A stretch of DNA of 60,178 bases, filler included, from Sphacelaria rigidula (GCA_964200075.2; 8 parts of 8 records of this genome joined end to end with filler, not necessarily neighbours in it); one strand, 5' to 3'. Positions 7,089-60,178 are shown, numbered from the whole stretch's first letter. Translations and numbers: made by a program. The notes: a model not told the origin generated them from the sequence alone.

Positions 7089-7125
7089 GTGGGTCGGCCC
7101 CGGGGGGCAGGAGGGAGCATGTCAG
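7089..7125 (+). CDS. PUF60: PUF60-like exon (VGRPRGAGGSMS); gene truncated by contig end
   Basis: CCAG acceptor, GTAAG donor; completes the IK|VGRP motif found at the end of PUF60 RRM1. Confidence 0.75.
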
Positions 7126-7435
7126 GTAAGATGAGCATTTATCTCTACCAACAACAACGAAAAACGCCTCGGAGGGTGATCATTCCTTTTTTCATCAACC
7201 CTAAAAACAGGAGCAGGCGCTCTGGATTAGAGTAATCATGACAGGAACGTCTGGTCGAGAAGCGGTTTGTATCGTCACATTTCGATCGTTTGCTGCGTCG
7301 CGCGAAGAATCTATATTTTACTGTGCAACGGGCGCTGGTTCTCATTTTAATTTTTAATTTTAATTTTATGTCTCATTCCCTCTGCCCCCACCCACCCCCC
7401 CCCCCCCCGCCCCCCCCCCCCCACAACACCCCCAC

Positions 7436-7535
7436 NNNNNNNNNNNNNNNNNNNNNNNNNNNNNNNNNNNNNNNNNNNNTTAATTAATTAANNNNNNNNN
7501 NNNNNNNNNNNNNNNNNNNNNNNNNNNNNNNNNNN
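7436..7535. other. Artificial contig spacer
   Basis: N44-TTAATTAATTAA-N44; stop codons in all six frames. Confidence 0.98.
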
Positions 7536-7633
7536 GCTTTAGGACTAGTTATCTAGATAGCATACATATATACCAAATCTCAGGCGATAATGGGGTCTAC
7601 CGGGAAATGCCTCAAAAACACGACAACCCGCAC

Positions 7634-8000
7634 TGTGTGTGTGTGTGTGTTTTGTCGTCCCATTTATTATGGGCGCCAGTCCGCACCTTTCGGTATATGT
7701 GGGCGCACCAGCCGGGGTCACACAAGAGGGAGGTCAACACATGATTTTTTTTTTATTTTTTGTTCGTATGTAGTACCTCACCTTCCTTCTGCGGTGCTTG
7801 CCACTTTTTTTTATCGCGAGAGTTGTTCAGCAGTCCCTTTCCTTCGTCGACCGTTGAATCGAATTTTGTGTACCCACGATATGGTCGCTCTCCATTGATG
7901 GGCATGTGAGAAAAAATCCTAGATCGTTCCAGGAATTAAACCCCCCTACTCAACCGTCGGAGGGTTCCGAGGTTACCAACTGAGCCACCGGGGCGACCCG
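7634..8000 (-). mobile_element. tRNA-derived SINE, near full length, with (CA)n tail
   Basis: Reverse complement reads GGTCGCCCCGGTGGCTCAGTTGGTAACC...ATAAATGGGACGACAAAA(CA)n. Confidence 0.75.
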
Positions 8001-8009
8001 CTAACTGTA

Positions 8010-8680
8010 TCAGTGAATTTGAGCAGCAGCGGGGATGACTCTTTTTCCTGCCTGGGTCGCTGACAGACGAGAAACTGCTGCAACAGTTTGTCATCTCTCA
8101 GCCGTACCCGGGCTCGCATGTCATCGTGGGACGTGCGCATGACCTTGATTATCATCTGCAGCGGGACTCCAAAACGAGCGCGCCCTTCCCGCCAGACCAT
8201 GCGATTTACAGGGTTGCAAGCCTTCTGCAGTTTGTTGAAGCATTTGTTCAATGCGTTACTCCTCACCCGTCCCAACTTCTCCAGTCGGCATGCTACAAAC
8301 ACCACATAGGTGGTCGACTGTTAGCGTCGAAATTTACACCGTTCTTCAGGGCGACTTCTGGTATTCTACCAGTAAATACCAAGATTTTTTGGCCTCGATT
8401 TTGCAGCGACCTTTCCAGAGTGCTTCGTGAGGGAGATATATCCATAATGTCCACAGCCGGTCCTATCCTCCTTTCTTGTGTATAACACTCTGATAGTGGC
8501 GTCCTTCCACTCCGGTGGTACGTCGCCACACGTCCGAACAGCAACGGTGATGCCATGAAAGTGGTACGAGACTTCTAGAGGCTCTCTAACTAATCGAGTC
8601 TTGAGGAGTTCAGCCCGCAGCCTATCCGGTCCCATCGCTTGACCGTTGGCAATACAGCGCTGAGCACCTCTTTCGCTTTA
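8010..8680 (-). mobile_element. Degenerate RTE-clade LINE reverse transcriptase fragment
   Basis: MGPDRLRAELLK...GDVPPEWKDATIRVL...ISLTKHSGKV and FVACRLEKL...ARFGVP...HDDMRARV...SPLLL match early non-LTR RT motifs; frameshifted. Confidence 0.85.
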
Positions 8681-11600: not shown

Positions 11601-13014
11601 TTTTCAACCCGTGCTTAGCTAACGTTGATCGTATGTTGTCTTTTCCGGGCACCGTAGCCCCCTAATCGTGGCAAGATGGCGTTATCGTCGTGGTTTGTCT
11701 CAAGTGCCATATCAGCCTATTCCACAGGCCGAGCATGTAACCGGACCATTACATCATGGGAAGAAGGAATGTGCCTACAGTACTTGCTGCTATTTCTCCT
11801 GATTTCACAAGGGTCTAATCCCCCCAGCGGAAATGGTGATTTGTGATATAGATGGAACGTGACCCAAGGTTCAACGCCTTCTTAACTATGATCAGTGTGC
11901 TGAAAGCTTGAGTAGGTACACAACGCACCAGGTGTCCGAGTAAAGCAAGCCGCAAATGCACACGTGCAGGTTTCCGTGATCGTTGGTCACAGTAGCAACA
12001 GCAAAAGGAGCTCAAAGGCTTGATATCTTTTTTAACTCTCACTGATTATCCCCGCGATGGCCCAGCACACTGTTCTCGCCAGTGGTAAACAGTAGGAGCA
12101 GATGGCCCGGCTCAAAGGATGGCTCAAGAGTGAGCAAGGATGCATGGGTACATGCGACGCAACCTATCTAAATTCGGCCCGAGAAGGCGTTTGCCTCCTC
12201 GGGGTCAGGGCATTTCAGCCTGCACACTAATCTTCCCTAGAGTACAGCCTGTACATCCAGTTTTCCCAGAACTTCGGAAGCATTCCCATGGCTGGATCGA
12301 ATGATCTGTGAGCCAACGTGCCCCAAAACTGTCTGGAGGAACAAATAACGCCTCTCTATCTTCCTTCCTCATGACAGATTGCAGTGTCGTCGTAGCGCAA
12401 CAGGCGCATTTAGTTATGAGGATCACCGATTGGCTGGGGTAATTATACGTTCGAGCGAAGTACGGGGCCATTTTTTGTGCCCCTAATTGTTTTCCAGGAT
12501 GTGTGCAACTATCCTCTACTGAAGAAGTGATGGTGCGATGCAGCCTGAGTGTGCAGACCAGCCAGTGGACATTCATTTGTCTTAGGGTAATAATGAGACA
12601 TGACCGTTGCGGTACGACGGGCGAAAACACAATAAAATGCGTTGCATGTCCCCCAATCCTCTCGTCGTCTCTTGTCCGATTTTGGAGTGTCCGGTCCACT
12701 AATATGCTGCCTGCAAAAAATACATTATTCGTCGCTTTTTCGGTCTACGTAAATATTAAGCTTCAAGCCGAAACGCACCTTACAAGGTGCGATTCCGACT
12801 TCGATTTGAACCTCCAATCATAGACTCGAGAACGGTCATCTTGTAGTTACACTATAGTTCAACTTGAGCTACGGGGGTTCGTCTGTACAAAGCCGGGGTT
12901 ACAGTGCGGGATGCGAAGCGAGACCAATCTCGTCTCTGACAGATCGTACGGTGTCATAACAGACGCAGGTACGGGGAAAAGTGCGACGGTTTAAGGATCC
13001 CGTTGCAGCAGAGG

Positions 13015-13520
13015 GAGCGCGGTCATGATGTTGCATGCCGTAGCCATAAAACCATTGACCTCGCAGCATCCCTACAGAGCCGGGAGGGAGCATGCCGTTT
13101 TTTTGCCGGACTACGCTCGTAATCAATCGCCAACCGCGAACCGCCGTCATGTATTCGGCGAGTTGCATGCGGGGGGACAGGCACTCTCCTAGGAGTTTTT
13201 GGCCCGAAGCGTACTGATTATCCCGCGTTTGGATGACAGCCTTGAATGAGTTGCTTCATTTTCCGGCATCGCCACTTCGTGAGACTGCCACGGGTTCCAC
13301 ACTGCCTCGTGGGTGTCTCACCATTTAGATATTACGTAGCACAACCATCCCTTTTGCGTGGAGTTCAGGTTCTCCCACCCCTCACAATATGATGTAGCTC
13401 GGCTTCTTTCATGGTTACCGCAAAAAAGTGCAATCGAGGAAAGAAACGGTGACATGTTTACCTACCTCACGCGGCGAGTGGCGTGTACTGCAGGGTCACT
13501 ACCAGGCGACGCCAACCCTT
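13015..13520. repeat. Dispersed repeat family A copy (opposite orientation to 2770-3225)
   Basis: CATGATGTTGCATGCCGTAG...GACCTCGCA...GAATGAGTTGCTTCATTTT shared with 36890-37455. Confidence 0.75.
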
Positions 13521-14301
13521 CAAAGGGAAAGTCACAGCAGAGGGGGGTTGGCGACGGTGCACCGGGTACAACAGTAATAGAACTAGTGACATATTTGGGG
13601 AAATGTGCAACCGCAACAGGCAATGCGGGCAGAAAGCACACGTAGCAGGACCGTATCACCCGTTCGTCAGAGGTTTTGGGCGCAATAACTGTAGCACACG
13701 AAGAATACTACCGGGGAGAGAGGCACGCTTCTCCTTCCCGACAATACAGTATCCGTTTCGACACTCACACGGAGTCCCAATGCAGAGCACCCCTTCATTG
13801 TGCAGGAGAGCGTGCCATCTGGGTTCGAGTGTATTGATTGAATGGTTGATTGTCGCACATGAAGTGATCTCCGAGGGACTCAACCCGTGTCACACGATTA
13901 ATGCAGACAAGGTAGACAAGGTAGACAAAACGGGGACGCTGGCTCAAGGGAAAACAAAGTAGGGCGGGAAAACCAAAACGAAGAACATACGGAAAAAAGT
14001 AAACTGAGAAACCAAAGACCAAAACACTGGCAAACAATAGCAGAAAAACAGGAACAAAAACAAGGACAGAAATAACAACAGACTACAAGCAGGGGGGGGA
14101 CAGGAGAGGAACGGAAAAGGACTAGGATAATATCGTGTAATTATAAGACAAAATAAGCAGTGCGGGAGAACAAAAATAAAAATAACCAGCCCCTGCAACG
14201 TCGGTCTTGGTGAAAAGAAGGCAGTTCGCAAAGAAGCACATGTACTCAAGCACAGAAGAAACCAAATAGGCCGTGAGAGGGAACTGCGGCTCAGCTATTC
14301 C

Positions 14302-14660
14302 CAGGGATTTTCACGTTACACGTTACACGTACGTTACACGTCACAAACGCACGTCACAAGGGTGTAACGTAACGTAACGTAACGTATGTTTTTCGAACAC
14401 GTCACAAATGTGACGTAACGTAGCGTACCGGTGAAAAAATGTGGTGTGACGTAACGTTCAATTTCTCAATACGTCACAAATGTGACGTGACTTGACGTAT
14501 TTTTTGTACGTCACCGTAACGTACTTTGAAACGTTTCCCGTAACGTGGAGCGTGCTTGATACGTTACGCGTCACAAAACACGTTACACGTCACAAAACAC
14601 GTTACACGTCACACTGTTGTACGTTTGTGACATCTGAATGAACGTCACGGCCGTCACACG
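14302..14660. repeat. CGTAA/CGTCA/TTACAC short-motif array, possibly a DNA transposon subterminal region
   Basis: Many ACGTTAC/ACGTCAC/GTAACGT units in both orientations, starting right after CAGGGATTTT. Confidence 0.6.
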
Positions 14661-14970
14661 CTCAACTTGTACCACAATTAGTCTGAGATTTGCATATGTG
14701 ATACTCGCATGATTTGATACATGGTCAAGAAGCGTGAGTGTCCACACGTCATCATAATACGCACACGATGTCAACGCAAGTTGAGCGCCACGGCAGCATG
14801 CACCGCCACACTACACCCAACAATAGTATGCATTACTTTGAGCTGCCGTGTACCGTTTTACTTATTGGTGTCACTTCAGTAGTATCAAAATATGGACTAA
14901 AGAGCGGATCATCTATGTTGCGGATGGAGATTTTTATTGAGGATGAGAACCCGGAGGATTAAAATCTTCG

Positions 14971-15070
14971 NNNNNNNNNNNNNNNNNNNNNNNNNNNNNN
15001 NNNNNNNNNNNNNNTTAATTAATTAANNNNNNNNNNNNNNNNNNNNNNNNNNNNNNNNNNNNNNNNNNNN
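14971..15070. other. Artificial contig spacer
   Basis: N44-TTAATTAATTAA-N44. Confidence 0.98.
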
Positions 15071-22505: not shown

Positions 22506-22605
22506 NNNNNNNNNNNNNNNNNNNNNNNNNNNNNNNNNNNNNNNNNNNNTTAATTAATTAANNNNNNNNNNNNNNNNNNNNNNNNNNNNNNNNNNNNNNN
22601 NNNNN
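22506..22605. other. Artificial contig spacer
   Basis: N44-TTAATTAATTAA-N44. Confidence 0.98.
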
Positions 22606-30040: not shown

Positions 30041-30140
30041 NNNNNNNNNNNNNNNNNNNNNNNNNNNNNNNNNNNNNNNNNNNNTTAATTAATTAANNNN
30101 NNNNNNNNNNNNNNNNNNNNNNNNNNNNNNNNNNNNNNNN
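30041..30140. other. Artificial contig spacer
   Basis: N44-TTAATTAATTAA-N44. Confidence 0.98.
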
Positions 30141-37575: not shown

Positions 37576-37675
37576 NNNNNNNNNNNNNNNNNNNNNNNNN
37601 NNNNNNNNNNNNNNNNNNNTTAATTAATTAANNNNNNNNNNNNNNNNNNNNNNNNNNNNNNNNNNNNNNNNNNNN
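37576..37675. other. Artificial contig spacer
   Basis: N44-TTAATTAATTAA-N44. Confidence 0.98.
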
Positions 37676-37802
37676 GTGAGGGGGGACTCGTTGGAGGCCA
37701 CGGTCTCCACTTCAACCCCATATTTTGTATGAACCCCATTTTCTAGAATCCATTGTTTAATGTTGAAGGGGAGACCGTGGCCTCCAACGAGTCCCCCCTC
37801 AC
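37676..37802. repeat. Hairpin: 41-bp inverted arms (40/41 match) around a 45-bp loop
   Basis: 37676-37716 is the reverse complement of 37762-37802 with one mismatch. Confidence 0.9.
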
Positions 37803-40800
37803 TCGCACTTTTTGCAGGATTGCAGCCGGATAGTGCAACCTGTAAGTACTTGGCAGCATGGACTGGGGTCCTAAACCCTGCCCGACCACGCAAAATACGC
37901 AAAGCAGGAATAATGACGCGAACATGCAGAAAGTTTTAGCAGAACAAACTTGTTAGATGATGTGACGGAACGGGCGCTTCTGAATTGGAAGACAATACCG
38001 CAAGGATATTGTCGTGACGAACTAGCAATAGCATACTCCGCAACAAAATGTTGGCATTTTGTTTTGTTGAAATAGAAAAAGAGACAACAAAAGCAGTCAA
38101 TGCCCACACCTGCTTTCTCCTTCATACGGTCATCGGTAGGTCGTAGTTCGGTAGCGATAAAGTTTACCTTGGCCTGCACAAAACACACGGCGGGGAGTGC
38201 CATAGATCGGTGACACATAGAGAACATTCCTTTCGTTATGTGAAAAAATGGCAGTTCTCCCCATCATTTGTTTCATCACCAGACCATTCGTCATTGACAT
38301 ACGCTTGCTCTCCCCCCCCCCACCCCCCAAAGAAAAAACTGTGTTCACCGGAAAACGCATACCAGATTAACCACGGGACGCACCGGAGTCAGAAGAAAGC
38401 GGGAATATGCGGCGCTATTGGAGGAGCTTCGCGCTTTGATCTGTCTTCTGTCTCGTGCGTTTTCGACATCAGTGCACAGAAAACGACTGCGGTCGTCAAA
38501 ATATTCGAAATACATGCACCTAGTGGTGAAATATAGTTTTTTCCCTCAAAATATGAAGCGGGTTCTAATTTGCTATCTATTTAGTTTCTCGGAAACCGCT
38601 GAACGTTTTGATGTCCGATGGTATAAAACACAGGCGGGACGTACATCTTCTCAAACTCTCGAAAACGGGCGGTGTGGTCGCGAACGAAAAAAGTAATCAG
38701 GCGGGGCCAGTGCTTAAAGTAAATAGGCTACAGCGGATTTTAACCTCGCCGAATTGGAATAGTAGTGCCACCTCTCCTGGACAGTCGACTCCTTGGGTTT
38801 AACACTCGGCCACATCGTCGACCAACTGCTCAACAGAAACGCCGGGCAAACGGGGGAGAGTCTCCGCTCCACTCCGGTCCCTCGCGCTGTAGCCACAACT
38901 TTGCGGAGGAACTGTGCTTGTTCATGTACATTGCGCCCGCCGATTACCCCGCATACCGTCTCGCCCCCGCCACTACTACCCGTTGAGTCATCACCAGTTT
39001 TCTGCGACACGTTGAGGCTCGCCACCCTGACCATGCACTCCATCAGAAGCACAGCCACTTCATACAAGCTGAGGAAGTATAGTCCGTTTTCATGCAAATG
39101 TCTCTGGCTGTCGACCACGGTGTCGCGAACTGCAGTGGCCCACCCACCTGGGGACGTTTTGGCCGCAACGTCGAGGAGATTTCCGAAGTCCAAACTGTGC
39201 TGGAGTGGGGCCAACGGGCTCGCGAGACGAAAGAGACCGTACACATCAGCCACGGCGTTTCCCTCTACGTCGGCTTGGTCGAATCGTAGGTTCGGAAGAC
39301 GCTATGGAGTTGGTGCGGATGCTCATGTCGGCAAGAGCGGGAATCGAAACTTTGCGCAGTTCAACTCGAATCATTCGCACGCCTTCCGACCCTGTGGTTG
39401 CGCCCCCAGTATCCGTGTTACAGTCTTGAGGTTGTGCGTCGACTCAGGGAAGGGCCCCGCCGTTGTCGAGGAGATACGAACAGCCCTTTTGTATTATCGG
39501 TCGTACCATACATGGTATGTCGGTGATGAGTACAACGAACAGGTGGCACCTAACATTGAACAGAAGGAACAACAATAATAGTCATGATGGCGCATTCCAC
39601 GAGTTAGGTCACGTTGACAATATAAGTGGCAGGCCATAAATTTGTTGGAGTCGCAGGCGTTACCAAAACCCCTGCCTTGTTTGCCTGCTCGTGAAGCAAT
39701 GTTTACCCATTTTCTGCGATTGCACGAGATGAAACGAAACGCGACTCACCAGAAAGTGCGTCAACATTTCCACGACATCTCTCGCGCCCTCTGCCCTCCC
39801 AAGAAGCATGTGTGCGATCTGGTCCTCGTTTGGCGTGTAAAGCCATTCCACACCCGATGTCGCAGCAGATCCACGCCCCAAGAAATGTTTCGAACACTCC
39901 TCGTTGCCTCCGGTACGTGAGATGAAATGTGCCCGGAGTTGCTTAAACAGTTCCACGAGCATTACCTTGGTTGTGTACCTGCAAACAAGTACGACAGGGC
40001 CGTGACTTTCGCTTTGCGACAATGACGGGTTCAATTAGAAAGATCGAAACACCGCCAACAAACACTTCAGTCGGACCAAGATAGTCACGTTAAAGCCTTT
40101 ACTCGCAAAGGAGTATTCAAGTCAACACACCCTTTGCGCCCGCCCCCTCCCCCATCAACAAATAGACATCATAGCATCCACCGCCGAGTAAAACCACCAA
40201 AACAACACTTGTATCCATGCAGTGCAAAAATATTCAGGCGATCCCGAATCTATATTTGAAGTGCAACGTTTAACACGATGGTTCCGGGGTTGTCGGGGAA
40301 AGTATCCAAATAACTCGTCATGACCATTCATGAAGTGGACGAGGCAAATGACTGCTTACGGTGAGTGGTAGATATCTCACTCAAAGCATAAACTCACGAT
40401 CTCAATCCAGTCTTGTCCCTGAAGCATCGCATGTACAGATCGTCCAGGTCGTCCTTGGTCATCTCGTCGAGGACCTGAATTCCATTCCCGGACTCACCCA
40501 AGTAGTTCACGAGGACCTGTCCGTCGCCGCTCTCTACCGAGCCAGCCTGCGGGGTAGCCCCCCGAGCACCCAAGCGAAATATAGTTGGCTTCCGGTTGCA
40601 AGGGCAAAAGTTGACCGTCGTCTTTGTGACGAACTGATACCGACGGACGAATACCATACCGCTCATCATACTCAACTTGAGCTACTGCGCGCCGAGATCC
40701 ATGTCGATGACCATCTCTTGTCGCGCCTGCAACAGCAGGTCTACCGAATTATTGTCCGTCGCCAACTTGTTGCACCCGTCGCGGGTTTGCAGTCGGGGAT

Positions 40801-42077
40801 AATAGCCATCCGTGAAACTGAAATAACCGCAAGGGTGATTAGTCATGGGCTCGAAGGCGAAGTAGCAGTCCTTCAACTGTTGCGAAAGGCCGCCGCTGCT
40901 GATTCTGCCCGTCGGCAGGCGGAAACGAAAAATAGACGTAAAAGAAGGTATCACAAGAGTGTATGGCATGATTCAGGATGCGAGCAGCGAAAACATGGCA
41001 CCCCCTCCCCCAACAACGCCAGTGGTCGCAGTTATCCTATACCCGCGGGTTCCTGCAACATAATCCAGAACGGTTGTACGGCTGGAATAACGTTCATAAC
41101 ATACTCATACACTGCAACTGCTGTGAGTTGATACCTCCGCGTGAGCGCTTTGTGTTCGTCCGCTCAGTCGCCGTCGTTCGTGCACTCCAGCTTGAATTCC
41201 TCAAAGATCGACGAGAAGGACGTGCCCAACCTGTAGCGGTTCCTCGAGCGCACCAGGAGACGAATGTCCACCAACAGCTTGTTATTATTGTTCAGCATGC
41301 CCGTCGTTCTCCAGCCATCGCTCGCCCATGGTCGTGCCCAGCAACTTGTGCACTGCTTCATCTCAACGTTGACGCGGTGGATATCCGTCCCGATCCTCTC
41401 CTGTGTAGGGCGGATGAAGCGAGAGGACACGAGAAGGCAAGCCAAACGCGAACATCACGAAACAGACACATTGACTCCCATCGCCGATGATCCAGTCGAA
41501 TATTGCACTGTGCTACTAGTGAACAGCACGGTGACGCGGAAAAAAAGACCGCGCATGATGCCTCACCTGTGTAATCGCTAGTGCGATTTCGTCGGCCAGC
41601 GGCTGGAAAGGCTGCCGGCATCGTGCGCATATTTTCTCGAAGACTGTGAAACGATCAAGGAGCAAAGCTCCACCACGCGGCAGGTGCGGAAACGGATCCA
41701 TCGGGAACACGTAGTCCGCGGCAATCTTCATGAGCTGGGATATTTCCTCTGGAACTGCTGAGGATCATTCTCAAACGGCTTGCGAGCGGAGTCGAAGCTG
41801 GCGTCGTTTCGACGCTCCACATCCGTGCTTGGTACACTCGATTCCTCTTCATCGCTCGTGGTGCTTCCGGATCCGGACCCCAAAACCACTAGGCCGACGA
41901 TATGAGTGTGCACACACACCATTTCTCCCTTCTGCGCCTCGAAGCACGGCCCTCCGCCACACCCCTATGCACAACGGACGGTTACAAACTTTGGCGAGTG
42001 AAGGGAACGAAAGCACCAAAATATCAGGCTGCCAAGTACGCAAACACGAACAAACACCGTCTGTTTCCGCACGTAAT

Positions 42078-42705
42078 CGGTCGCCCCGGTGACTCGGTTG
42101 GTATCCTCGAAACCTTTTGACAGTTGGGTTGTGGGTTCAAATCTCGAAACGGTCTGTACTTTTTTTCTCACACAATGCCCGACAATAGTACAGGGGAGAG
42201 CGACTATGCCGTGGATACACAAATTTGGACTTAATGGTCGACAGCGGAGAGGAATCGCTGAGCCCCTCTCGCGAAAACAAAATCAAGCACCACAGAATGA
42301 AGGTGGTGAACTAAAAAAACAAACGAACGAAGAAAAACCCGGTGTTGGCCGTCCTCCTTTGTGACCCCGGCTGGTGCGCCCACACACACCGAAAGGTGTA
42401 TACCGGGGTGATGCTACGGTAGGGGTGCACTTTTTGCGCGAAGTCGTGTCTGGTTCAGGGGCTCCTGACGATTCTAGATGCACAAGAACTTGGGTCAGGG
42501 CACTCCCGTTTGCAAATTCATTAGGGATATCCCTTGCACATTGGAATAGTAATCCTAGCGTACTCACACATGTTTCATAGGTCGTGTTTTGGATGACATA
42601 AAGGGCTCCTAATAGTTTTAAACTCGGATAATATTTGTGCACCCCCCTGCCGTAGCATCGGTCACCGGCGTCCAGAATAAATGGGACAACACAACAACAC
42701 AACAC
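42078..42705 (+). mobile_element. tRNA-derived SINE interrupted by a MITE, inside a KDZ gene intron
   Basis: Head GGTCGCCCCGGTGACTCGGTTGG, B-box GGTTCAAATC; tail resumes at about 42664 (AATAAATGGGACAACAC). Confidence 0.75.
42410..42659. mobile_element. MITE with TIR GATGCTACGGTAGGGGTGCAC
   Basis: Inverted ends; second copy at 53731-53988. Confidence 0.8.
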
Positions 42706-43349
42706 ATGATCGTTCACATCACCTTACAGAGTAGTTGTGGGCGATCCTTCCTCCTCCTTTTTCGGGCTGCTTTATCCACGCCACTTTCGCCGTCGTATAA
42801 CACATGCGCCCACCCCCCAGGATAAGACCAATTATTGTTTACCCACACTACACAGTACCCCGTGCCGTTCAACCTCGCCACCATGGCAACCCCGACAGCA
42901 CCAGCGTCACGGTACATGTTCATGACTCTGTCAACGGAATCCTGCCCTAGCGCTCCTGCGTCCATCGCTGAAGATGCCGTCGCCAGAATATCGTATGCGG
43001 CAAAGCGGACTGAGGTGGAATGTTTGGCCTGTATGCGTTGGGCGGCGACACTGTGCTGACAAAACAGCACCGCACTGTCCATTCCCTGCTCCTCTGCAGA
43101 GGCTACGACGGGCATTATTCTGTAAAAAATCAAAGAGCGACAGGGGGTGAGTGCTTGTGGGCAAACTTGTTTTGGCGGTACAGATTCGCCGGAAAATTGC
43201 GCTGGACTTGCCAATTGAATACCCGGTCAGCAATTCGCGAGAACACAATACTCACCCTTTGCATATATCCCGCGTGCACATAGCATGCCCCCCGTTCATC
43301 ACAACAAGCACGCGGCCGCCGCCCGTGGCTCCGCATACGAAATACACAC

Positions 43350-44890
43350 ATTTGCGCTCCGCAGCTCCTCGCGTGTTGGAGGAAGAAGGAAGGAAGTCCA
43401 CGACATATTTTTCGGGCGAATCTCTTGTGCGAATCTCTGCACCGTCAATGCTTGGTGATGCGCGGCGTCACTCGCCCTCTTTCTCCTTCTTTGGCATTGC
43501 TTTCCCTCGCGGTAGCACCCCTGATACCCGCAGGCCCATCGCACTTGGTCAGGGCACGTTTCACACATCCACTGCAGCCCTTGCCTTTTTTGCCCTTCCC
43601 CGCACATACAGCATATTTTCATCAACCGCAGACGAGTGCTGTCAGCTTCCCCGTAGCCCGCACAGCCGCCATCGACGATATCACCCCCCCCCCCGTCCCC
43701 TAACCCGCCCCCGTTCCCGCCCCTGTTTCCGCCGCCGCTCTCCCTCCGGGTATTCTCTTCTTCGCGATCCCTCGGTCGTTGACAATACTGGCACGAATCC
43801 GTACGGTTGAAAGAAAACCAGTTCGGGTACTGGCACACTGCGCAGAACCACGCGGGGCTGCCGTCACCGCCAGTATCACCCTTGTGCCCGGTCCCTCCAC
43901 CGCTGCTGCCGTTGCGCCCATCCCGTCTACCGTTCTCGGCCATATCCTCAAACGAGGGAAAGTTAGCGCCGCCGGTGCCGGCGCCAGCATCAGCGCCGGC
44001 ATTCCAGTCCCCGACCACCCTACCGTCGTTGCCGTTGCACCCACCCCCTCTACCGTCCTCGCCCATAATCTCGGTCCAGACGCCCCCGGTGGCGCCAGCG
44101 CCGACATTCCAGTCCCCGACCACCCTGCCGCCGGTGCCGCTGCACTCACCCTCTCTACCGCTCTCGCCCATAATCTCGGTCCAGACGCCCCTGGTGGCGC
44201 CAGCGCCGGCGCCAGCTCCAGCGCCAGTGCCGACAAATTAGTCCCCGACCACCCTGCCGCCGGTACCGTTGCACTCGCCCCCTCTATCATCTTCGCCCAT
44301 AATCTCGGTTCAGTCGCCCCCAATGCCGCCGGCGCCGGTGCTAGCGCCAAAGCCGACATTCCTGTCCCCGACCACCCTGCCGCCGGTGCCGTTGTACCCG
44401 CCCGCTCTGCCGTCCTCGCCCGTGATCTCGATCCAGTCGCCCCCGGCGCCGCCAGGCCGGCATTCCAGTCACTGACCACCCTACTGCCGCTGCCATTGCA
44501 TCCGCCCCCCCTATCGTCCTCGCCCATACCCTCGATCCACCGGAAGCCGGCACCGGCACCTCCATTCCAGTCTTCGATTCCCCTACTGCTGCTGCCATCG
44601 CAGCTGCTCCCTCCACTGCCGTCGCCCATACCCCGGGTCCAGCGGCCGCCTGTGCCGCCGGCGCCGGTGCCGACGTTCCACTTCCCGATCCCCCTACAGC
44701 CACTGCCATTGCACCCGCCCCCTGCACCGCTCTCGCCAAAACCACCCGTCCAGCGCAAGCTGTCGCCGCCCCCATCCTCATCACAATTCGCTTCTTCAGA
44801 CACCCTGGAATGCTTGCACACAAAACACGTTTGAGGGTTGACCAATGTCGAGGTCAGCACCTTGCAACTTCCGCACAACCATGAGTCTTC
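43350..44890 (-). pseudogene. Disrupted ORF: RanBP2-type ZnF, Gly/Trp tandem repeats, RanBP2-type ZnF, Cys cluster; probable N-terminus of the KDZ gene
   Basis: WLCGSCKVLTSTLVNPQTCFVC and WFCAVCQYPNWFSFNRTDSCQYC; repeats such as GGVWTEIMGEDGRGGGCNGNDGRVVGDWNAG; frameshift and stop inside the array. Confidence 0.6.
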
Positions 44891-45110
44891 GCCGCCGCCT
44901 GCCCCTTCGCCTTCGTTGGTCGCCTTCGTTGGTCAATGGTCATACGACTAAGGCAAGCAACAAATGAGTACGCCCCCTTCGCCGCCGTTTCTACCGCAAC
45001 CGCTTCTGCTACCACTTCCGACGAAAACACCGGCTGATCGACTCGCACTCCCTCCACCCCCCCCCCCTCCCCCCCCCCCCCCTCCGCACACCCTCCGAGA
45101 TGGGCCTCAC

Positions 45111-45210
45111 NNNNNNNNNNNNNNNNNNNNNNNNNNNNNNNNNNNNNNNNNNNNTTAATTAATTAANNNNNNNNNNNNNNNNNNNNNNNNNNNNNNNNNN
45201 NNNNNNNNNN
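45111..45210. other. Artificial contig spacer
   Basis: N44-TTAATTAATTAA-N44. Confidence 0.98.
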
Positions 45211-52644: not shown

Positions 52645-52744
52645 NNNNNNNNNNNNNNNNNNNNNNNNNNNNNNNNNNNNNNNNNNNNTTAATTAATTAA
52701 NNNNNNNNNNNNNNNNNNNNNNNNNNNNNNNNNNNNNNNNNNNN
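52645..52744. other. Artificial contig spacer
   Basis: N44-TTAATTAATTAA-N44. Confidence 0.98.
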
Positions 52745-53730
52745 CCACTTAAAGCGAATGATCAAAGCCACTCTCAATCGTATCATCTACTCTCAATCTC
52801 ACGAAAACACTGTTAGTAGTAGTAGGGAAGAATAGTACTCCAGAAAACTAAAAAAATGGAACAACTACGAATTCTGAAAACTTCGATGCTGACTACTATA
52901 CACAAAAATTATTGATCGACATGGCATGGGTTTGGGTGGTGGGTGCATGGTGGCGCCGAGGGTGAGAAAATAGCCGTCCCCGGGCGGTGGTTCCTACCGA
53001 GACCTGGGGGTTGTATCCACTACTTGAGCATAATATAGCGTGCGAATGGCAATACGTTCGAGTTATATACATCATTTTGTTTTTGGTATATTTGAGATAA
53101 AGAGCAAATAAGAAAAGCAGAACAAAAAATTCCTGACCCGGGGATTTAATGCACCCATATCCCCTCCCCCCCCCCCCCCTGTCACACGGCCGGCAGTATC
53201 TGTCATTTTGAGGTGTTAAACGCGAATAAATGGCGATGCACCTCTTTACCTAAACACACGACGAGCGCATCGATGGAGCATGGAATTTGGATCGCTGAAA
53301 TTCTCCGAAGTTGTTTCTTCGCGTAGGACCTCAACATTTCGGGTATGGAATTCCCAAATTTGTAGGGCGTGTAGCAGTTGTCGATAATAGCTACCAGTAG
53401 GTAGCTCTAAAGGAAAGGAATCATATTTCGAATATTTGGTGTGAATACGAAGATTCTAATCCTCCTCGTTCTCATCCTCAATGAAAAGCTCCATCCTCCA
53501 CTTCGATGATCGGCTGTTTCATCAAGTATTTTTGATCTTCGACCCCTCGTTTCTCACCACTCGGGGATGAAAAAATAGCTATATCCCTTCTCCACGTAGG
53601 ATGAGAGTGTCATCTACCGTTTTGCCTACTTACACGGGTATCTTACAGAATACAAATTAAATGACGATGCCGCTCAACACGCGGGAGAGATCGGTTCCGA
53701 CCACATTTTCGTGAGATTGAGAGCAAAGCA

Positions 53731-53988
53731 ATGCTACGGTAGGGGTGCACTTTTTTCGCGAAATTATGTCTAGTCCAAGAGCTCCAAGAGCTCCTAACGA
53801 TTCTAGATGCACAAAACTATGGGTCAGGGTATTCCCGTTTGCAAATTTATTCGGGATATCCCCAGCACATTGGAGTAGTAATCCTGGCGTACTTTCACAT
53901 ATTTTCAAATATCGTGTTTTGCATGAGATAAAGGGCTCCTAACAATTCTAACCCCTCAGAAAATATTTGTGCACCCCTACCGTAGCAT
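53731..53988. mobile_element. MITE, second copy of the 42410-42659 family
   Basis: ATGCTACGGTAGGGGTGCAC / GTGCACCCCTACCGTAGCAT perfect 20-bp TIR. Confidence 0.85.
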
Positions 53989-56794
53989 CACTCAGCACAG
54001 CGTTGATCAAGAGTGGGTTTTATCACTCGCTTCAACTTGACCAATTTTCCGTTCTCTCTGTGTGTTTTTTTTCACCTGTAACACTGGCGTGTGCTTACAG
54101 CTACACGTCGATATCCTACTCAGGGATATCAAGGACTTCAGTGGCAAGCTACTACTTACTACATACAGATGGCGTATCGGGCTTTGTGGAGGGACATTTC
54201 GGAAATTAGACTATTGATTCATTATTTGACCGCTTCTCACTCTCAATCGTACCCTATATTATTCTCAATCGCACGAACGCATTGTTTTACGCGTATTCAT
54301 CCCACCGTGCTGCTTGATGACCCGCCCCCCTTCTCCTCATCCCCTTTCTCGGGTACAATATCAACGGATTCCCTCCCGGAGCAGTTTCCGCGGGAAGGGG
54401 ATCGAAGTTATCGAGCGTGTCAGCCATTTGCGGCCGGACAGCAGGAACCTGCACACGTGACAGGTATAATAGATAGAAAAAGCCTATTATAGAAACCCAC
54501 CCTAAACTAACTAGTACTCGTACGAGTAATACCTCTTGTTTTTCTTCGCGGGGCTACAGACACCCTGAGGAAAATGTTTTTACGACTCCTCGCGACCGAC
54601 TCGCTGTCAGCGCCTCTTAAATACACGAATAGCGATGCCCCTGCACGCGCAAGTGGTGATTAGAATGTGTACAGTATATATATGCTACGTACATTCAGAT
54701 TTGAGATAACCCCAGCCCCCTCCCCGACGATGAAATGAGCATGTCATCTCCCAAACGCCTTTCCCCGGGGGGTGTCATTCGACGACTAAGCCGTTTGGGG
54801 TTGGACTATACGGTGCTTCAAAACTTATGATGAAACGTGTCATCAACGTATGAGCGCCCTCATCATGTACCAGGTACCAGGATAGTCAGGGGCACCACCG
54901 TGGGTTTACGATAGGCCAAAACGGCGGATACCACCCCCGGGGACGGCTACTTTCCTACCCTGGGAAAACGATAGTTTAATCTCTTGTGAGACTTCAGCTA
55001 TGCCTTGGTGTTTCTCCAAAGAGTTATGTGCCATGCCCTGGCCATGCACTAACTTTTCGAGTTTTGTCTGAGGTCTTGAATATATTGAAACGGCCGAATC
55101 GCAAGAGAGGTAACATTAGCCCGCAACTTGGTCTGCGTTAAAAATGAATTAGTCACGGCCCACCCGTCGGTCCGAGATCCAGAGTGTTGGAACTTTATTT
55201 GGCGTGTGCGATACCGGACTTCACCCGACGCAGCCGCAAGTTTTTCCTACCCCCACTTCTTCGATGGCCTTGTAGATACAATTTCGGAGTTACATTTCTG
55301 TTAACTTATCATGACATGCACATTGTGTTCAACGCCTTGAACTTGTGATGTTGGATGTGAGATGGCCATTTTCCACTGAAAAAATGGTTGGTTGGTGTCG
55401 CGAAAGGCGCGTCAGATTCAGCGTTTCCACTGAATTCCAGTCGAAACACGTTCCTCTCTCTCGATTGAAGTCAGAAGTGGGCCCGCGGAACTGGTTGGTA
55501 AATAACATTGTGTTGAGATTGTTCCTTCTAAAACATGGTGACGCGAGATTGATGCCCCGAGTTTAAGGCGACCACTCGATGTGTTCACTTTTTTTTCACA
55601 AGTTTGCCGTCCGGTTCGACCGTCGGTCACGTGAAAATTCCGCCTGATATCAGGTCATCTTCCAATTGAACACGATACTGTTTCAACAAATACATCCACC
55701 TTGGCGGTCGAAGAGTTAAGGCCTTTCCCACCCAGGTTGCTCATTGGACGGGCATTGGGAGGATCACTGCACGGTTACGCCTTCGCAACGCGAGAAGATG
55801 CGGTTACCACGTGAACTACGCCGAGGATAGTGGTTCTTCCTGCATGAGCCATGGCCAGCAGCGATCACCAACTAATCACTGTTACACTTGAAAAAAGAAA
55901 CAGGTAGATTCGCGATAATCGCATCGATAACAACAGCACATACATGTGGTCGTGCATGTGCATGCATCGAGGTTTGATAATCAGACTTCATGCGCGAAAG
56001 TAACACACTCACGTTCACCTGCCCCCTCAACCGTGGCCAAAAACGGTTGCTTCACGCCCAGTTGGCGAAACTTTATCGAAAAAAAACACTTCCATGCACA
56101 GTGGACGAAACTTCGTAACCGCCCATGTCCGCCTACATATAAGCATACCCGAAAAAACAAATGATAGCTGTGGACCGATACTGCACCGAGCAGGCGTCCC
56201 GCGTAGATCATAACTCCACGATAAGGGGCTGCTCAGCTACTCTTCGCCCATATCTTCGCCGTAAGCGACACGCAGAAAGCTTAACCGTCTTTTCGACCTC
56301 GGAAAAGTGGACTCCAGTTCTAGAGTCAGCGTATCGAACCTACACTCTTCAGTTGGCACTCGGTGTGCTCAACTCTAGATCCTGACCCTTTCTAAAATAA
56401 AGCATGTATATTTCCGGCTCGATTTACAGGAAACGTGTGTGCGGTCTACCGTATTCGAACGCGTGTCTTCCCTCACTTTTCTAGTCCAACACATTGCTTC
56501 GTTCGTGTCTCGACCTGACCTGCTGCAACAATATACCGCTTGACTTACACCCTTTTCCATGCGCTTACACGACATGACCCCTACCACAACACTCACTAAA
56601 CACTTTACAGCTTATTCGACAATACTATGCTGCGGATACCCTTGCCATACCCTTGGCAACGGCTTAGCACCATACGATCGGCGCCATACGATCGGAGCGT
56701 GAAACAACACAAACGAGAGGAAATTGCTTGACGCCCCGGGTCTCAAATCGCTTGTTCGCTGTTCGACAAAAACCGATGTATCACCCCTCCCTCT

Positions 56795-56833
<39 letters not shown>

Positions 56834-57502
56834 ACCCCCCCCCCCCCACCCAACACCAAAAAAACACCAAAANNNNNNNNNNTTGGCCCCCCGGGTCCCC
56901 AATCGCCTGTTCGCTGGTTCAAAAAAACCCGTTTTTCCCCCCCCCCCCCCTCCCCCCCCCCCCCCCCCCTCTTCAACCTCTTTCTGAACACAACGCTGCA
57001 AGCTAACAAGGTCACAGTTGCTTACCAAGACACTCTCCATACATAACCACGGTGCCGCGATGGCACCGCTATCCTGAAAAAACAGTTAATTCCATCAGGA
57101 TGGTTTTTACAATCTCGAAAACAAGCACACCGGGCAAACACCGACCATCCCACCCCTCGGCATGCACAACTGTCTGTATCGGGCACTCCTCATCCCTCTC
57201 TCCGTCATATTTCTCCTATCCACGATCCGATGCTTGGTTCTTGCGTTGAATCCACGAGAACTGACTCATCAACCATGACCATGGAATTACTGCGTGGCCA
57301 AAAAACAACACGCACTTCTCAGGAGCGCGCCAGTAAACAAACACACAGCAACAACGCGAACCCACCCGTAACACCAAAGTAGAGCTACGTCGAGGTCAAC
57401 ACGTGGGTGCCAAACCCCGCCGATAAGCCAGAAGGCTAAACGACCTTGACGTAATACATGAGCGTGAACGAAACACAAGCAAAAACTAGCGCAAAAGTTA
57501 AC

Positions 57503-57700
57503 TCAGCATGATCCTTCCTTACCGGCCGCCCCCGGGGACGGCCCGTTGAGCCCCCAGTCGTAGTCAAAGTGCGACACCTTCAGCTTATCCTGGTTCTTTC
57601 CGACATGCTCGCGCACGTCCTCGGGCATGTAGGGCATCAAGGCGTCGAGAACGGAAGCGTGCCCGGCCTTCGTGAAGTCGTCCGCGAACCACTGGAACAC
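57503..57700 (-). CDS. DUF547-domain protein, last exon (VFQWFADDF...FDYDWGLNG)
   Basis: LSK|.F.W...DF and YDW.LN motifs of DUF547; CAG acceptor; 66 codons including the stop. Confidence 0.85.
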   Translation of the reverse strand: MFQWFADDFTKAGHASVLDALMPYMPEDVREHVGKNQDKLKVSHFDYDWGLNGPSPGAAGKEGSC

Positions 57701-58489
57701 CTGCGTGTTGTTTCGTTTTGTGTATGTGTGTGCCCGCGCGCGCGTGTTTTGGTGCGTATTAGGCTGCAGGAGGTTTTGAGAGGGGATGGGGCTTTCGGTT
57801 TGGTGTATGCGAAGTGTGTACACGAGGGTGTGCTTAGAAGGATACTTGGTATGGGTGCGGTCACGTATATGTGCCCACACACGTGAATCTCCAGCACTTT
57901 TGACACACGAGTCCCAGCGTTCCTAAGAGTTTGCTATTTTTGATTCCTGGGCGACGGAAATGTGAACAGGAGTTTGTCGGCAATGATGAACCGCAATGCG
58001 TCACTGTGTAGAGCTGAGATCAGACGCCGAACACCGAACGCACAGAGCAGCATGACTGTCCATATTATCATTCGTATTGATATTGACGCCTCACAACTTT
58101 CGCTCCGGTCGAACATACGGACAGGCAACATTGAGAAACTCTCCTAGTCAAACAAAATGCAAGGGCCTTCCCTCTGTAAAAATACCGGCTGTCTCGGCCA
58201 GCAGTTTGACAGTAGAGCCTCATGAATCCCTTGGCCGCCAACATCGTCATGTTCCATGAGTCGAACTTGCATTGGTCACGCGCTGGAGTGCAATTGACTT
58301 TCCAACCCTCGATGGTCTATTTTTTGTATGGGATCAGCGGTTGACAATTCGGTTTATCTCGGAGAAGCATGGAAGACACCAAGGGCGATTGAACGTGCAT
58401 ATAACCACACGCACGGGTACAACATTACACGATGCACTCCGCGCATTAGTGATGCCAGTATATTTGAACTGTGCTCAACAGTGCATTCC

Positions 58490-58527
<38 letters not shown>

Positions 58528-59848
58528 GGGGGGGGGGAGGTAGGCTGTCGTAATAGCTCGCCCTCGGAACTCGAGACAAATCTTTAGTCACGTGCGATCA
58601 ACCGACCTCTCTCGCGGTACCCTTCTTTCATCTTAATTTCCGAGCAGTGGATGATGATGATTCCCGCACCACATCGACTCTCAAAACAAACAGTTTTCCA
58701 TTTTTGTCGGATTTTCGAACGTCGGTACTGAGAGGAAGTACGATCACTATCGGGATTCGAGCCCAAAAAATCAACCTAGACTAGCATTGCCTGAAATGGT
58801 TGGACCACAGAGAAACAGCTATAATCCGCTTCAACGCTCGACTCAACATTTGGATACTCATGAAGGGTGACTCGTTCTGTCGCACGACCACATGCGTACC
58901 GCTAATCATCACGGTCACGAGTCTTCAAGGGTCGGACGAATTAATGATTCGTTCGGAAATTACTTGATTCTAGTGTGATTGATTCGTACGGTACGAATCA
59001 ATCCTTGCGCTTTGTTTTCAGCATTGCAACCCAGGTACGCGAAGCCCAGGTACGTGGAATGGCGAGAGGGTTGCGTGAAGACCTGTTTGACCAGCGGTCG
59101 ACATTTGTCTCTCGATTAATTAGGCCTAGAAATCGTGGATTTGTAGGGTTGGGGACTGGACCAGTATCTACTGATAATATTTCTGTACTGGCAGTTTTCC
59201 TGTACTGCGCCAGAGGCTGCCAGTACAGCCAGTACATACCCACCTTACGTACGTCCTATATTATGGCTACTAAACCACATGGAAACCCACCAAAACAGCG
59301 ACGCATGAAAGGCAGGAGAGGAGAGAGGTTGAGAACAGGGCACACACACACTAGAGGGGGACCACAAAATCGATGGACCAATATGTCACTAGCAGCTGCA
59401 ACCCGCCAGCTTCAGACCCGAGCCCGGGGCCTCAGATCCCTGAACCCACCGCGGCCTCCAGCGAATCAGGATTGTAGAAGTTCTTCTCTGGGTACACTGA
59501 CAACTATTTGAAGGAGAAAAGTTCTCACACCCGGGCAGGCATCATCGAAGTGGCCCAAAATCACCCCAGAAAGATCTTCTAGTGAAGCAAAATCGCGTAA
59601 AAATACGCCTCCGGCGGGACCCCCTCACCAGCCGGCGGGGGGCGGTGGTCGCGGCTTCACCGCGACACCAATGTACTGGTAGGACCCAGTAAAGTGGCTG
59701 CTCTCCGCAGCCACTTTACCTGGTACTGCCGCGTAGCGCCAGTCCCCAACCCTATGGATTTGGTGATTCGAACCGCCAATGATTCGTCCGAACCATGAAC
59801 GTAAATAAACGTGGTAGCTAAAAAGTGGAGCCTGACCTTTACACGTAC

Positions 59849-60040
59849 CTTGGATAGCGTGATGACACCTGCCGCCTTGTCCAACATCAACCCTTTTTTC
59901 TCATTGCTGAGGAAATGGCGCATATTAGCAGCCATATCTTCATCGATGGTTTCAGGCCTGTACACCTTAAGAGCCACATCTGGGCAACTGGCGGATGCGC
60001 ACACAATGCACGCGTGCAGCAGGGGGTCTGCAGGGTATCC
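59849..60040 (-). CDS. DUF547-domain protein exon (DPLLHACIVCASASCP...ITLSK)
   Basis: DP.IH.AL.CAS.SCP motif; TTTGCAG acceptor, GTACGT donor, phase 0. Confidence 0.88.
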
Positions 60041-60178
60041 CTGCAAATACAAAACGGACACAGAAAATATCAAGGCGCAAGCGCGCGCGGGGGGGGGGGG
60101 GGGGGGGGGGGGGAAAAAAAGGGGAACGATTCTTGTTTTTTGGAGAACCGCAAAAAATGAAAAAAACAAGATAAAGGG

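Follow-up and report, generated by a model that had tools for sequence, protein, structure and literature searches.

The question raised by this locus is whether a row of short open reading frames, on the minus strand, conceals a spliced transposase gene of the KDZ/Zisupton class. The window, meaning the whole 60,178-nucleotide stretch of DNA analysed, is made of eight unlinked pieces of about 7.4 kb each. The gene was read from one such 7.4-kb piece. A prior sequence-only reading had proposed six exons with GT/AG boundaries, spliced in consistent phase, with an end at 38714. The motifs that it quoted are present in the sequence, AG precedes all six proposed exons, and GT follows all five internal ones. 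GC3 of the exons is 0.50-0.80, versus a GC content of 0.455-0.53 for the introns. The features are collected in Table 1.

Table 1. Exons, proposed first intron, and lesions of the minus-strand gene (window coordinates)
Feature	Position	Strand	Description
Putative upstream exon E1	42723..43119	-	132 codons, open; AG before, GT after; gene membership unproven
Proposed intron 1	41965..42722	-	758 nt; nested high-copy repeats at 42078-42659
Exon E2	41567..41964	-	Cys/His knuckle, acidic Ser-rich linker, frame break, then CARC start of cysteine cluster
Exon E3	41135..41400	-	Core of CxC4 cysteine cluster; Pfam PF18717 match
Exon E4	40398..40904	-	168 codons; no known family; 3' end carries proposed first helix of SAP-like pair
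Exon E5	39750..39978	-	76 codons, open; ends in phase 0; spliced contigs X7 record 11, X8 record 15, X9 records 22 and 23
Exon E6	38745..39549	-	Module conserved across family; carries lesions 4-8; donor GAG/GT at 38745
Candidate exon E7	38110..38173	-	64 nt; CAG before, GT after
Lesion 1	E2, between 41764 and 41728		Frame break
Lesion 2	E3, 41164-41166		In-frame TGA
Lesion 3	E4, 40682-40684		In-frame TAG
Lesion 4	E6		Out-of-phase acceptor; transcripts 4 nt shorter
Lesion 5	E6, 39444-39446		TGA
Lesion 6	E6, near 39275		+1 nt shift
Lesion 7	E6, near 38885		-7 nt shift
Lesion 8	E6, 38799-38801		Stop

Contigs of a transcribed paralog support introns 2-5

Evidence for splicing comes from contigs of three runs, X7-X9, for which the label 'RNA?' is a guess, none of the runs bearing the stretch being recorded as RNA. 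These contigs are about 92% identical to the window and hence derive from a paralog. They contain joints at 41399/41566, around 40906/41135, at 39976/40396 (or 39978/40401), and at 39534/39747. The 3' part of E2 is covered by X9 record 24, which spans 41566-41720 and is joined to E3. Likewise, E3 occurs in contig records 17 and 24, and E4 is joined to both E3 and E5 in contig records 11, 17, and 23. Cover in X7-X9 is confined to exons; intron bins have values of 0.07-0.14, and the single-copy flanks are at 0 in X7 and X8. These data support introns 2-5 and chain E2b, E3, E4, E5, and E6 in one transcript, in the paralog. Four introns are thus bridged by contigs of three runs, all of them GT..AG, and two further introns are predicted. 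One claim of the earlier reading, that a gene with introns is hidden here and cannot be recognised from any one ORF, is therefore borne out. Inspection of the bare sequence is thus able to uncover a gene of many exons, here probably that of a mobile element, which ORF-based annotation misses.

Splice phase is not consistent throughout. As drawn, the E5/E6 junction is out of phase: with E5 closing in phase 0, an acceptor at the AG of 39551-39550 gives one base too many. Transcripts have 11 nt at this junction where the earlier model needs 15. Nor does E6 end at 38714: it has a donor at 38745, which is followed by the candidate 64-nt exon E7. Contigs break off at 38744, beyond which they have a further 27 and 89 letters that were not placed, and there is small depth in X7 and X8 over the E7 region (bin 37924-38171). 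E7 resembles the post-splice continuation of P0029, a gene model of the kelp Undaria, and the read-through ORF P0011. The last 48 codons of E6 lie in a different frame from the long E6 ORF. Hence the tail of that ORF, aligned to the family with MAFFT, was dropped, as tblastn with P0011 places the true tail in the other frame. The C-terminal 200 residues of P0029 were rejected as a guide to 3' exons because they enter a dispersed hairpin repeat. On its 3' side, the gene continues beyond the visible stretch. It probably has at least seven exons, and is multi-exonic, as Zisupton transposase genes are. According to the available text of PMC9297572, Zisupton elements are multi-exonic and present in algae, with an example in Pristionchus pacificus.

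The window copy is a pseudogene in a small family

With eight lesions, in E2, E3, E4, and E6, the window copy is a pseudogene that is unable to make the protein. Logically, the gene could be intact in the organism and the breaks could be errors of the assembly behind the window. Half of the lesions are length changes of the sort that long-read assemblies make (the E2 break, the extra 4 nt at the E6 acceptor, the +1 nt shift near 39275, and the -7 nt shift near 38885). In addition, within the gene, window-identical contigs of the DNA run are listed only for 41348-41669 and 38453-38715. However, four lesions are in-frame stops, that is, substitutions, and one is a 7-nt gap. Moreover, the independent transcribed paralog is also broken: it lacks 1 nt at 39084, a short way upstream of the L[FY]E motif that the family conserves. 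We consider assembly error very improbable. An intact copy was not seen.

Copy number was judged from depth in run X1 (DNA). Between 37924 and 42100, outside high-copy repeats, bins are mostly at 113-259, compared with 50-63 for window-identical contigs. The exception is bin 38420-38667, at 62.7. This depth is two to four times that of single-copy DNA, so that no more than 2-4 copies are suggested at an identity of 90% or above. The introns are multi-copy too (161 and 145 for introns 3 and 4), so the copies are DNA duplicates and not retrocopies. The duplicated unit takes in introns and a downstream non-coding stretch. A second copy of the gene was not found in the other seven window pieces.

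Repeats of a different kind are nested in intron 1. One of them is a 250-bp element whose inverted ends, of 16 nt each, lie at 42410-42425 and 42644-42659. The nested repeats are marked by blastn matches to other window pieces, very high depth, and joints skipping 262-284 nt. Inverted repeats found in the window are internal or part of other repeats. Zisupton ends are described, in the available parts of PMC12730594 and PMC11343200, as terminal inverted repeats flanked by 8-bp target-site duplications. Such ends were not seen within the visible 7.4-kb piece.

The protein carries a CxC4 cluster

The cysteine cluster noted by the sequence-only reading corresponds to a Pfam family. The E3 ORF, 41164-41454 on the minus strand, matches CxC4 (PF18717) with 32.8 bits against a curated cut-off of 26.9 (E = 7.3e-8). 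Residues 23-87 of the ORF align with positions 41-105 of the 130 in the profile. Note that the matched stretch has just three cysteines, so the score is not due to cysteine content. We conclude, from this profile match, that the gene is predicted to encode a true CxC4 cluster. Since the spliced contigs link E2b through E6, the CxC4 cluster and the E6 module are in one transcript. The spliced model, E2b-E7, hence links the cluster to a conserved, unannotated module. A SAP-like helix pair, seen by eye, is split by intron 4 and neither half matches SAP (PF02037) at E<=10. Pfam returned no family for E5, an HMG box was absent from all Pfam scans of exon fragments, and searches of protein sequences by words, for which E5 and the CxC4 ORF served as queries, gave no match. 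Upstream of the gene, Gly-rich ORFs at 43299-44932 had been taken, by eye, for RanBP2-type fingers; Pfam reported nothing above noise for them.

The status of E1 is a separate matter. A CxxC-x14-CxH pattern, found by regular expression, spans the join between E1 and E2 and resembles a SWIM finger. CxC is typical of SWIM, versus CxxC at this join, only the first cysteine is supplied by E1, and Pfam does not report SWIM in either half when the halves are scanned separately. E1 matches no Pfam family at E<=10. Its DNA depth in X1, 67.4, is about that of single-copy DNA, compared with 113-259 in the bins of E2-E6. In addition, no spliced contig gets to E1, the furthest ending at 41720. It is quite possible, though we stop short of favouring it, that E1 is not an exon of the CxC4 gene. 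It would then belong to an upstream single-copy gene, or to none, the true 5' exons would be elsewhere or lost, and the SWIM-like finger would be a coincidence of one cysteine. Against this, E1 is a 132-codon open exon inside a 170-amino-acid ORF, with AG before, GT after, and a phase-0 end that fits E2. Furthermore, E2 opens at an acceptor without a start codon, which requires some upstream exon, and there is a trace depth of 0.46 over E1 in X9. E1 may be part of the gene. Either answer concerns E1 alone and is compatible with our preferred explanation of the locus, set out below.

The KDZ transposase domain was not detected

The claim that the gene encodes a KDZ transposase is one that our searches did not bear out. 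The KDZ domain, PF18758, was not found at E<=10 in E1, E2a, E2b, E4a, E4b, or E5, nor at E<=1 in the 12 ORFs of the first Pfam scan. The 28 distinct E6 relatives that were scanned, at thresholds of E<=1, 0.1, or 10, did not have it either (3 scanned at E<=1, 23 at E<=0.1, and 3 at E<=1, with 4 rescanned at E<=10; P0003 enters the total a single time). The control was a set of 15 fungal ORFs picked out with a KDZ motif: all 15 matched PF18758 with 73.6-213.9 bits, and half-domains alone gave more than 100 bits.

Our own KDZ profile was built from 14 of those 15 fungal ORFs; this reference set is Kyakuja-like only, and the window exons are short and decayed. Run unfiltered on 1589 ORF pieces of the window, the profile scored 7.6 bits at best, in another window piece, and no exon frame rose above 0 bits. 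No match to the spliced read-through was reported, versus matches to 111 of 200 shuffles, with a maximum of 4.0 bits. In hhalign comparisons with fungal KDZ, probabilities did not exceed 0.6% and P values were 0.088-0.77. The top pairing, which is non-significant, places ILLITDVMC on the fungal ITISYDIAC, which we take to be the second-aspartate motif of KDZ. Finally, tblastn of window exons and E6 relatives against 120 fungal KDZ loci found nothing better than E = 0.047.

E6 encodes a rare, conserved module

E6 has relatives of its own. Its family shares the motifs ITD-x-C, LLENGGALPR, VSIPAL, NVY, QRxxDF, L[FY]E, and PxLPxF. The ITD-x-C aspartate is present in all seven sequences that reach that site, and there is hardly any variation at the glutamate of L[FY]E. 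A profile search of 1.84 billion (1.84e9) representatives retrieved 25 single-ORF relatives. Relatives at 25-67% identity share the module, with introns at matching positions; the ORFs begin at the ITD motif and end right after YAEV. At E<=0.001, the same search returned no long transposase and no HMGXB3-sized protein, and nothing above 450 amino acids except one 3544-amino-acid protein matched in 34 short stretches. One named gene model was found: it comes from Undaria and shares a 90%-identity cluster with one of the relatives. The gene's probable brown-algal affinity rests on this cluster mate. Runs containing the stretch are labelled alga or algae metagenome, and the algal setting proposed earlier agrees with both observations. 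The family is rare and almost unannotated, as expected of repeat-masked elements.

Searches elsewhere were negative. Pattern matches to the E6 family in JGI metagenome contigs (131) and in IMG/VR (6) yielded no confirmed member, and the profile had no match among PDB sequences at E<=10. An AF2 model of the relative P0016, made with 19 sequences, has a pLDDT of 72.6 and is confident at residues 100-257 only, as a helical bundle. Foldseek of this model against the PDB gave no match at E<=0.001. In the ESM Atlas, P0016 scored 0.89 or less, on helical-repeat clusters, and E5 was without a usable match.

A Zisupton-like element gene is the probable explanation

We think it probable that the window holds a dead copy of the gene of a Zisupton-like (KDZ-class) element. 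The gene would belong to a small algal family of repeats that are copied at the DNA level. Its protein would begin with zinc-chelating modules, namely the CxC4 cluster confirmed by Pfam and perhaps also a knuckle of SWIM type. Next would come some 500 residues that no library recognises, closing in the E6 module that is conserved in other assemblies and in one Undaria gene model. Most likely, the gene is the transposase gene of a cut-and-paste transposon of this class. For transposons of this class, DNA binding is attributed to the cysteine clusters, and a D..D..E core does the cutting and joining. E4-E6 would then be a very divergent KDZ catalytic region, and the element would be mobile. The undetected KDZ core, the helical-bundle model that has no PDB match, and a depth of just 2-4 copies count against this explanation. 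The CxC4 match above cut-off favours the explanation because the Pfam title of PF18717 ties the family to KDZ transposases. The eight lesions, and the unrelated repeats nested in intron 1, favour it too, since both features recur in the giant KDZ elements of Ectocarpus. As described in the available text of PMC12477816, these form eight families with 6403 copies and 1.8% of the genome, their transposase gene is often pseudogenised, and unrelated repeats are nested inside.

A second explanation, which we consider unlikely, is that this is a family of host genes which arose from a Zisupton-type element and have since lost the ability to transpose. The product would be a domesticated CxC4 protein and the window copy a duplicated pseudogene. 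The comparison is with vertebrate HMGXB3, a protein that carries CxC4 and for which the sequence-only reading proposed motif parallels; CxC4 with no KDZ core to be recognised would be compatible with a Zisupton-derived protein of this kind. CxC4 is indeed present with the KDZ core undetectable, copy number is low, and three runs show a paralog that is transcribed with its introns correctly removed. Both module and intron positions are kept in relatives at 25-67% identity, and one is annotated as an ordinary Undaria gene model. However, the tail of that model enters a dispersed repeat and is unreliable. Frame breaks interrupt the window copy and also the paralog that is transcribed, and the duplicated unit includes introns and a downstream non-coding stretch. 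Furthermore, there is no third-position excess, with 4, 4, and 2 differences at codon positions 1, 2, and 3 (10 differences listed, at 39288-39375, which are only part of all).

Cutting across these readings, a new protein family could be represented by E4-E6 (about 500 residues, ITD-x-C ... LLENGGALPR ... L[FY]E), as a protein body joined to CxC4 that has not been described before. It would be either a deep Zisupton-like branch, with a core that has drifted past PF18758, or the equivalent in algae of those animal host proteins that derive from Zisupton. We regard this as a tentative and rather doubtful proposal. If true, the spliced transcripts would be the first tie of the E4-E6 body to CxC4.

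Comparison with known elements

The closest systems are presumably those of the Zisupton clade, including the fish Zisupton of Bohne et al. 2012. In the canonical Zisupton layout, KDZ is combined with CxC4 and SWIM, according to the available part of PMC11343200. As far as the accessible text describes KDZx1 of Cryptococcus deneoformans (PMC11343200) and the Pristionchus pacificus element (PMC9297572), the window gene shares with this clade an N-terminal CxC4 in a long protein, many exons, and a kind of element reported from algae. It also shares membership of a multi-copy family with dead copies and, putatively, a SWIM-like knuckle. Unlike in the clade as described there, the class-defining and best-conserved PF18758 domain is undetectable in the window gene, and its E6 module matches nothing in the libraries searched.

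Compared by description, in the portion of PMC12477816 available, the Ectocarpus elements have in common with this locus an algal host, nested unrelated repeats, a pseudogenised transposase gene, and transcription of some copies. In contrast, there are thousands of copies of 10-30 kb there, and 2-4 close copies, in a 7.4-kb piece, here. That such a gene is easily missed in an alga was an overstated claim of novelty. Judged from the available text, multi-exon algal Zisupton elements (PMC9297572) and giant Ectocarpus KDZ elements (PMC12477816) are in print. Novelty is thus low, this type of element having already been described in algae, and knowledge of the mechanism of KDZ/Zisupton elements is left unchanged by our result. 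Nevertheless, the spliced model could aid curation of algal KDZ and Zisupton libraries.

Fungal Kyakuja-type KDZ elements, represented by metagenome loci L001-L120, differ in carrying CxC2/CxC1 clusters where CxC4 is found here. There is no profile similarity and no tblastn match at E<0.04. What the two have in common is a D-[IV]-x-C motif, for which the hhalign pairing is no better than noise, and the succession of cysteine cluster, spacer, and protein body, as in the L002 ORF with CxC2 and KDZ.

A spliced gene at the locus

A multi-exon gene is present on the minus strand at this locus, and contigs from public sequencing runs are the decisive evidence. The sequence-only reading had proposed a gene hidden in short open reading frames (ORFs) joined by splicing, with six exons, E1 to E6 (see table), and this was largely right. 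AG precedes all six proposed exons and GT follows each of the five internal ones, with donor sites GTGATG, GTGAGG, GTATCA, GTGAGT, and GTGAGT. Exon GC3 (0.50-0.80) is higher than intron GC (0.455-0.53). Note that the window comprises eight pieces of 7434-7435 bases, with spacers N44-TTAATTAATTAA-N44 between them, and that neighbouring pieces are not necessarily adjacent in the genome. The gene lies entirely inside piece 37676-45110 and our view is limited to those 7.4 kb.

Four public runs contain the stretch as DNA. Three small runs (X7-X9), bearing the same species label, are presumed to be RNA, which is a guess. When contigs from X7-X9 were placed on the piece, cover was confined to exons; depth was 0.07-0.14 in intron bins and, in X7 and X8, 0 across the single-copy flanks (43132-44867). 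Joints in these contigs correspond exactly to proposed introns, and overlapping contigs link E2b (part of E2), E3, E4, E5, and E6 in one transcript. Four of the proposed introns are bridged in this way. The contigs diverge from the window by about 7-8% (e.g. 46 of 581 letters). Hence, their source is a paralog and not the window locus. In the DNA run X1, introns (145 and 161) are as deep as exons, which shows that the genomic form carries the introns.

Features of the gene and its setting
Feature	Position	Strand	Remarks
E1	42723-43119	minus	proposed exon
E2	41567-41964	minus	proposed exon
E3	41135-41400	minus	proposed exon
E4	40398-40904	minus	proposed exon
E5	39750-39978	minus	proposed exon
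E6	from 39549	minus	proposed exon
Candidate exon 7	38173-38110	minus	64 nt, CAG before, GT after
Intron skipped	41399|41566	minus	X9 record 24
Intron skipped	about 40906|41135	minus	X8 record 17
Intron skipped	39976|40396 and 39978|40401	minus	X9 record 23, X7 record 11
Intron skipped	39534|39747	minus	X7 record 11, X8 record 15, X9 record 22
Lesion 1	between 41764 and 41728	minus	frame break in E2
Lesion 2	41164-41166	minus	TGA
Lesion 3	40682-40684	minus	TAG
Lesion 4	E5/E6 join	minus	out-of-phase
Lesion 5	39444-39446	minus	TGA; relatives have arginine of LPR here
Lesion 6	near 39275	minus	one base extra
Lesion 7	near 38885	minus	seven bases missing
Lesion 8	38799-38801	minus	stop
Spacers	7436-7535, 14971-15070, 22506-22605, 30041-30140, 37576-37675, 45111-45210, 52645-52744

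Revision of the exon model

Several details of the proposed structure need correction. First, the exons were said to splice in consistent phase, and the E5/E6 join is out of frame. E5 ends in phase 0 at 39750, while the AG at 39551-39550 puts the start of E6 one base off the family frame. In transcripts, 11 letters stand at this join, four fewer than the 15 required by the earlier model, and the family frame is restored. Hence, the window copy either carries four additional bases or has lost an acceptor. Second, E6 had been run to a stop at 38714. Contigs align as far as 38744, beyond which 27 and 89 letters are left unplaced. The sequence there is GAG|GTTAAA, and P0029, a gene model of the kelp Undaria pinnatifida, is spliced at the equivalent position. 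All family ORFs terminate just past a YAEV motif, reading through such a donor. The long ORF and the final 48 codons of E6 do not share a frame. The peptide encoded by candidate exon 7 is that found past the splice in P0029, and also in P0011, a read-through ORF. Note that about 150 nt separate E6 and exon 7 in P0011, compared to about 570 nt in the window, and that bin 38420-38667, downstream of E6, has only single-copy depth (62.7) amid a multi-copy stretch. Hence, an extra insertion seems to be present in intron 6 of the window copy.

Membership of E1 is doubtful. Spliced contigs reach no further than 41720 and none extends to E1. In X1, depth is 67.4 in the E1 bin, near the 50-63 of window-identical contigs, compared to 113-259 in the E2-E6 bins. 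The boundary of the repeated unit seems to fall in intron 1, among unrelated high-copy repeats (42078-42659). We consider it a real possibility, short of probable, that the gene does not include E1. The E1|E2 join reads CxxC-x14-CxH, of which the first cysteine alone comes from E1. When the two halves were scanned separately, neither half of this proposed SWIM pattern matched SWIM in Pfam, and neither half of the proposed SAP pair matched SAP. The sequence-only reading also proposed motif parallels with HMGXB3.

The intron 1 repeats are two dispersed sequences with copies, at 73-82% identity, in pieces 1-7435, 7536-14970, and 52745-60178. The second, at 42410-42659, bears inverted ends of 16 nt and is missing from many contigs of DNA and probable RNA runs, where joints skip 262-284 nt. 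Hence, it is a small inverted-repeat element inside another repeat.

A CxC4 domain joined to a conserved module

The proposed cysteine cluster was borne out. Among 12 ORF fragments, the sole significant Pfam match was that of the E3 ORF to CxC4 (PF18717; 32.8 bits, cut-off 26.9, E 7.3e-8), titled 'cysteine cluster associated with KDZ transposases'. Word search found three single-ORF relatives of E6. An exhaustive search of 1.84 billion representatives with an E6 profile gave 25 at E<=0.001, 14 at 1e-10, and 5 at 1e-30. All but one of the 25 are of 450 aa or less; the exception is a 3544-aa protein matching in 34 short stretches. By tblastn, relatives are 25-67% identical to the window. Common motifs are ILLITD-x-C, LLENGGALPR, [RK]V[SD]IP[AS]L, NVY, QRxxDF, L[FY]EVV, and PxLPxF. 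One of ten clusters examined has a named member, the Undaria gene model. Two relatives of E6, P0005 and P0006, have C-terminal ends that look like translated sequencing-adapter sequence at contig ends, and their last residues should not be taken as protein.

Search for the KDZ transposase domain

The Pfam KDZ domain (PF18758) had no match at E<=10 in E1, E2a, E2b, E4a, E4b (the latter four being parts of E2 and E4), or E5, and none among 28 distinct relatives of E6 (scanned at E up to 0.1, 1, or 10); relative P0025 gave scattered matches only, none an accepted stretch. As a reference, metagenome contigs were searched with a short KDZ motif, yielding 120 loci. All 15 scanned ORFs around the motif match PF18758 (73.6-213.9 bits), one matching CxC2 too, and half-domains by themselves exceed 100 bits. 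Hence, the model is strong where the domain is present. A profile built from 14 near-complete domains was run unfiltered on 1589 ORF pieces of the window. The best score, 7.6 bits, was in another piece, and every exon frame scored below 0 bits. For the spliced read-through of E3-E6, this profile reported nothing, while 111 of 200 shuffles were reported (maximum 4.0 bits). Using hhalign, the E6 family and single exons aligned to the KDZ alignment with probability <=0.6%; the top pairing sets ILLITDVMC against ITISYDIAC, a suggestive match that is not significant (P 0.33). For an E6 relative, an AF2 model (pLDDT 72.6) has a confident helical bundle at residues 100-257, nothing else, and no PDB match. 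The proposed transposase domain was thus not found by Pfam, KDZ profile, or hhalign, with a reference set that is Kyakuja-like and fungal, and window exons that are short and decayed.

Decay and identity of the gene

The window copy carries eight lesions (see table). Since four are substitutions to stop codons, not all can be attributed to assembly error. In all three runs, the transcribed paralog lacks one nucleotide at 39084, immediately ahead of the conserved L[FY]E motif; here the window, unlike the paralog, retains the family frame. Hence, both copies are broken, and no intact one was seen.

Published accounts give the canonical Zisupton layout as KDZ, CxC4, and SWIM (PMC11343200), and describe multi-exonic elements in fish, fungi, and algae (PMC9297572) that create 8-bp target duplications (PMC12730594). 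For the brown alga Ectocarpus, one account reports eight KDZ families with 6403 copies, 1.8% of the genome, up to 30 kb long, with nested insertions and an often pseudogenised transposase gene (PMC12477816). Our literature searches on HMGXB3/transposase and on KDZ or CxC4 found nothing about this algal family; the consensus library of PMC12477816 may already include it. The KDZ-element interpretation was half right. The CxC4 match is in keeping with a Zisupton-like element, as is a gene that has many exons, several copies, and signs of decay, but tests for the defining transposase domain were negative. Hence, we file the gene as one that works like, and probably is, that of a KDZ-class element. 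The main rival, a host gene family derived from Zisupton, appears rather improbable. Novelty is low: this is a new member of an already known kind. The sole new point is that spliced transcripts join CxC4 to a conserved, unannotated module common to other assemblies and one Undaria gene model.

Other features of the piece

The region 43299-44932 (minus strand) includes a GC-rich tandem array (43991-44630; periods 104-129, 73-91% matches) with several open frames on each strand. On the minus strand it encodes Gly/Ala-rich repeats, set between two CxxC...CxxC knuckles that by eye look like RanBP2-type fingers; Pfam has nothing significant here. The region has single-copy depth, with only traces of X9 cover. 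The last bases of the piece (44868-45110) look like very high-copy simple or satellite sequence, with C-rich loose ends and a DNA-run depth of 2.3 million. At the other end, a hairpin repeat (37676-37802; 41-nt arms, 98% complementary, 45-nt loop) is covered very deeply in the DNA run (145166 for its bin). Translated, 37759-37905 matches residues 357-405 of P0029 at 47%. Hence, the hairpin repeat is common to a kelp and annotated there as coding.
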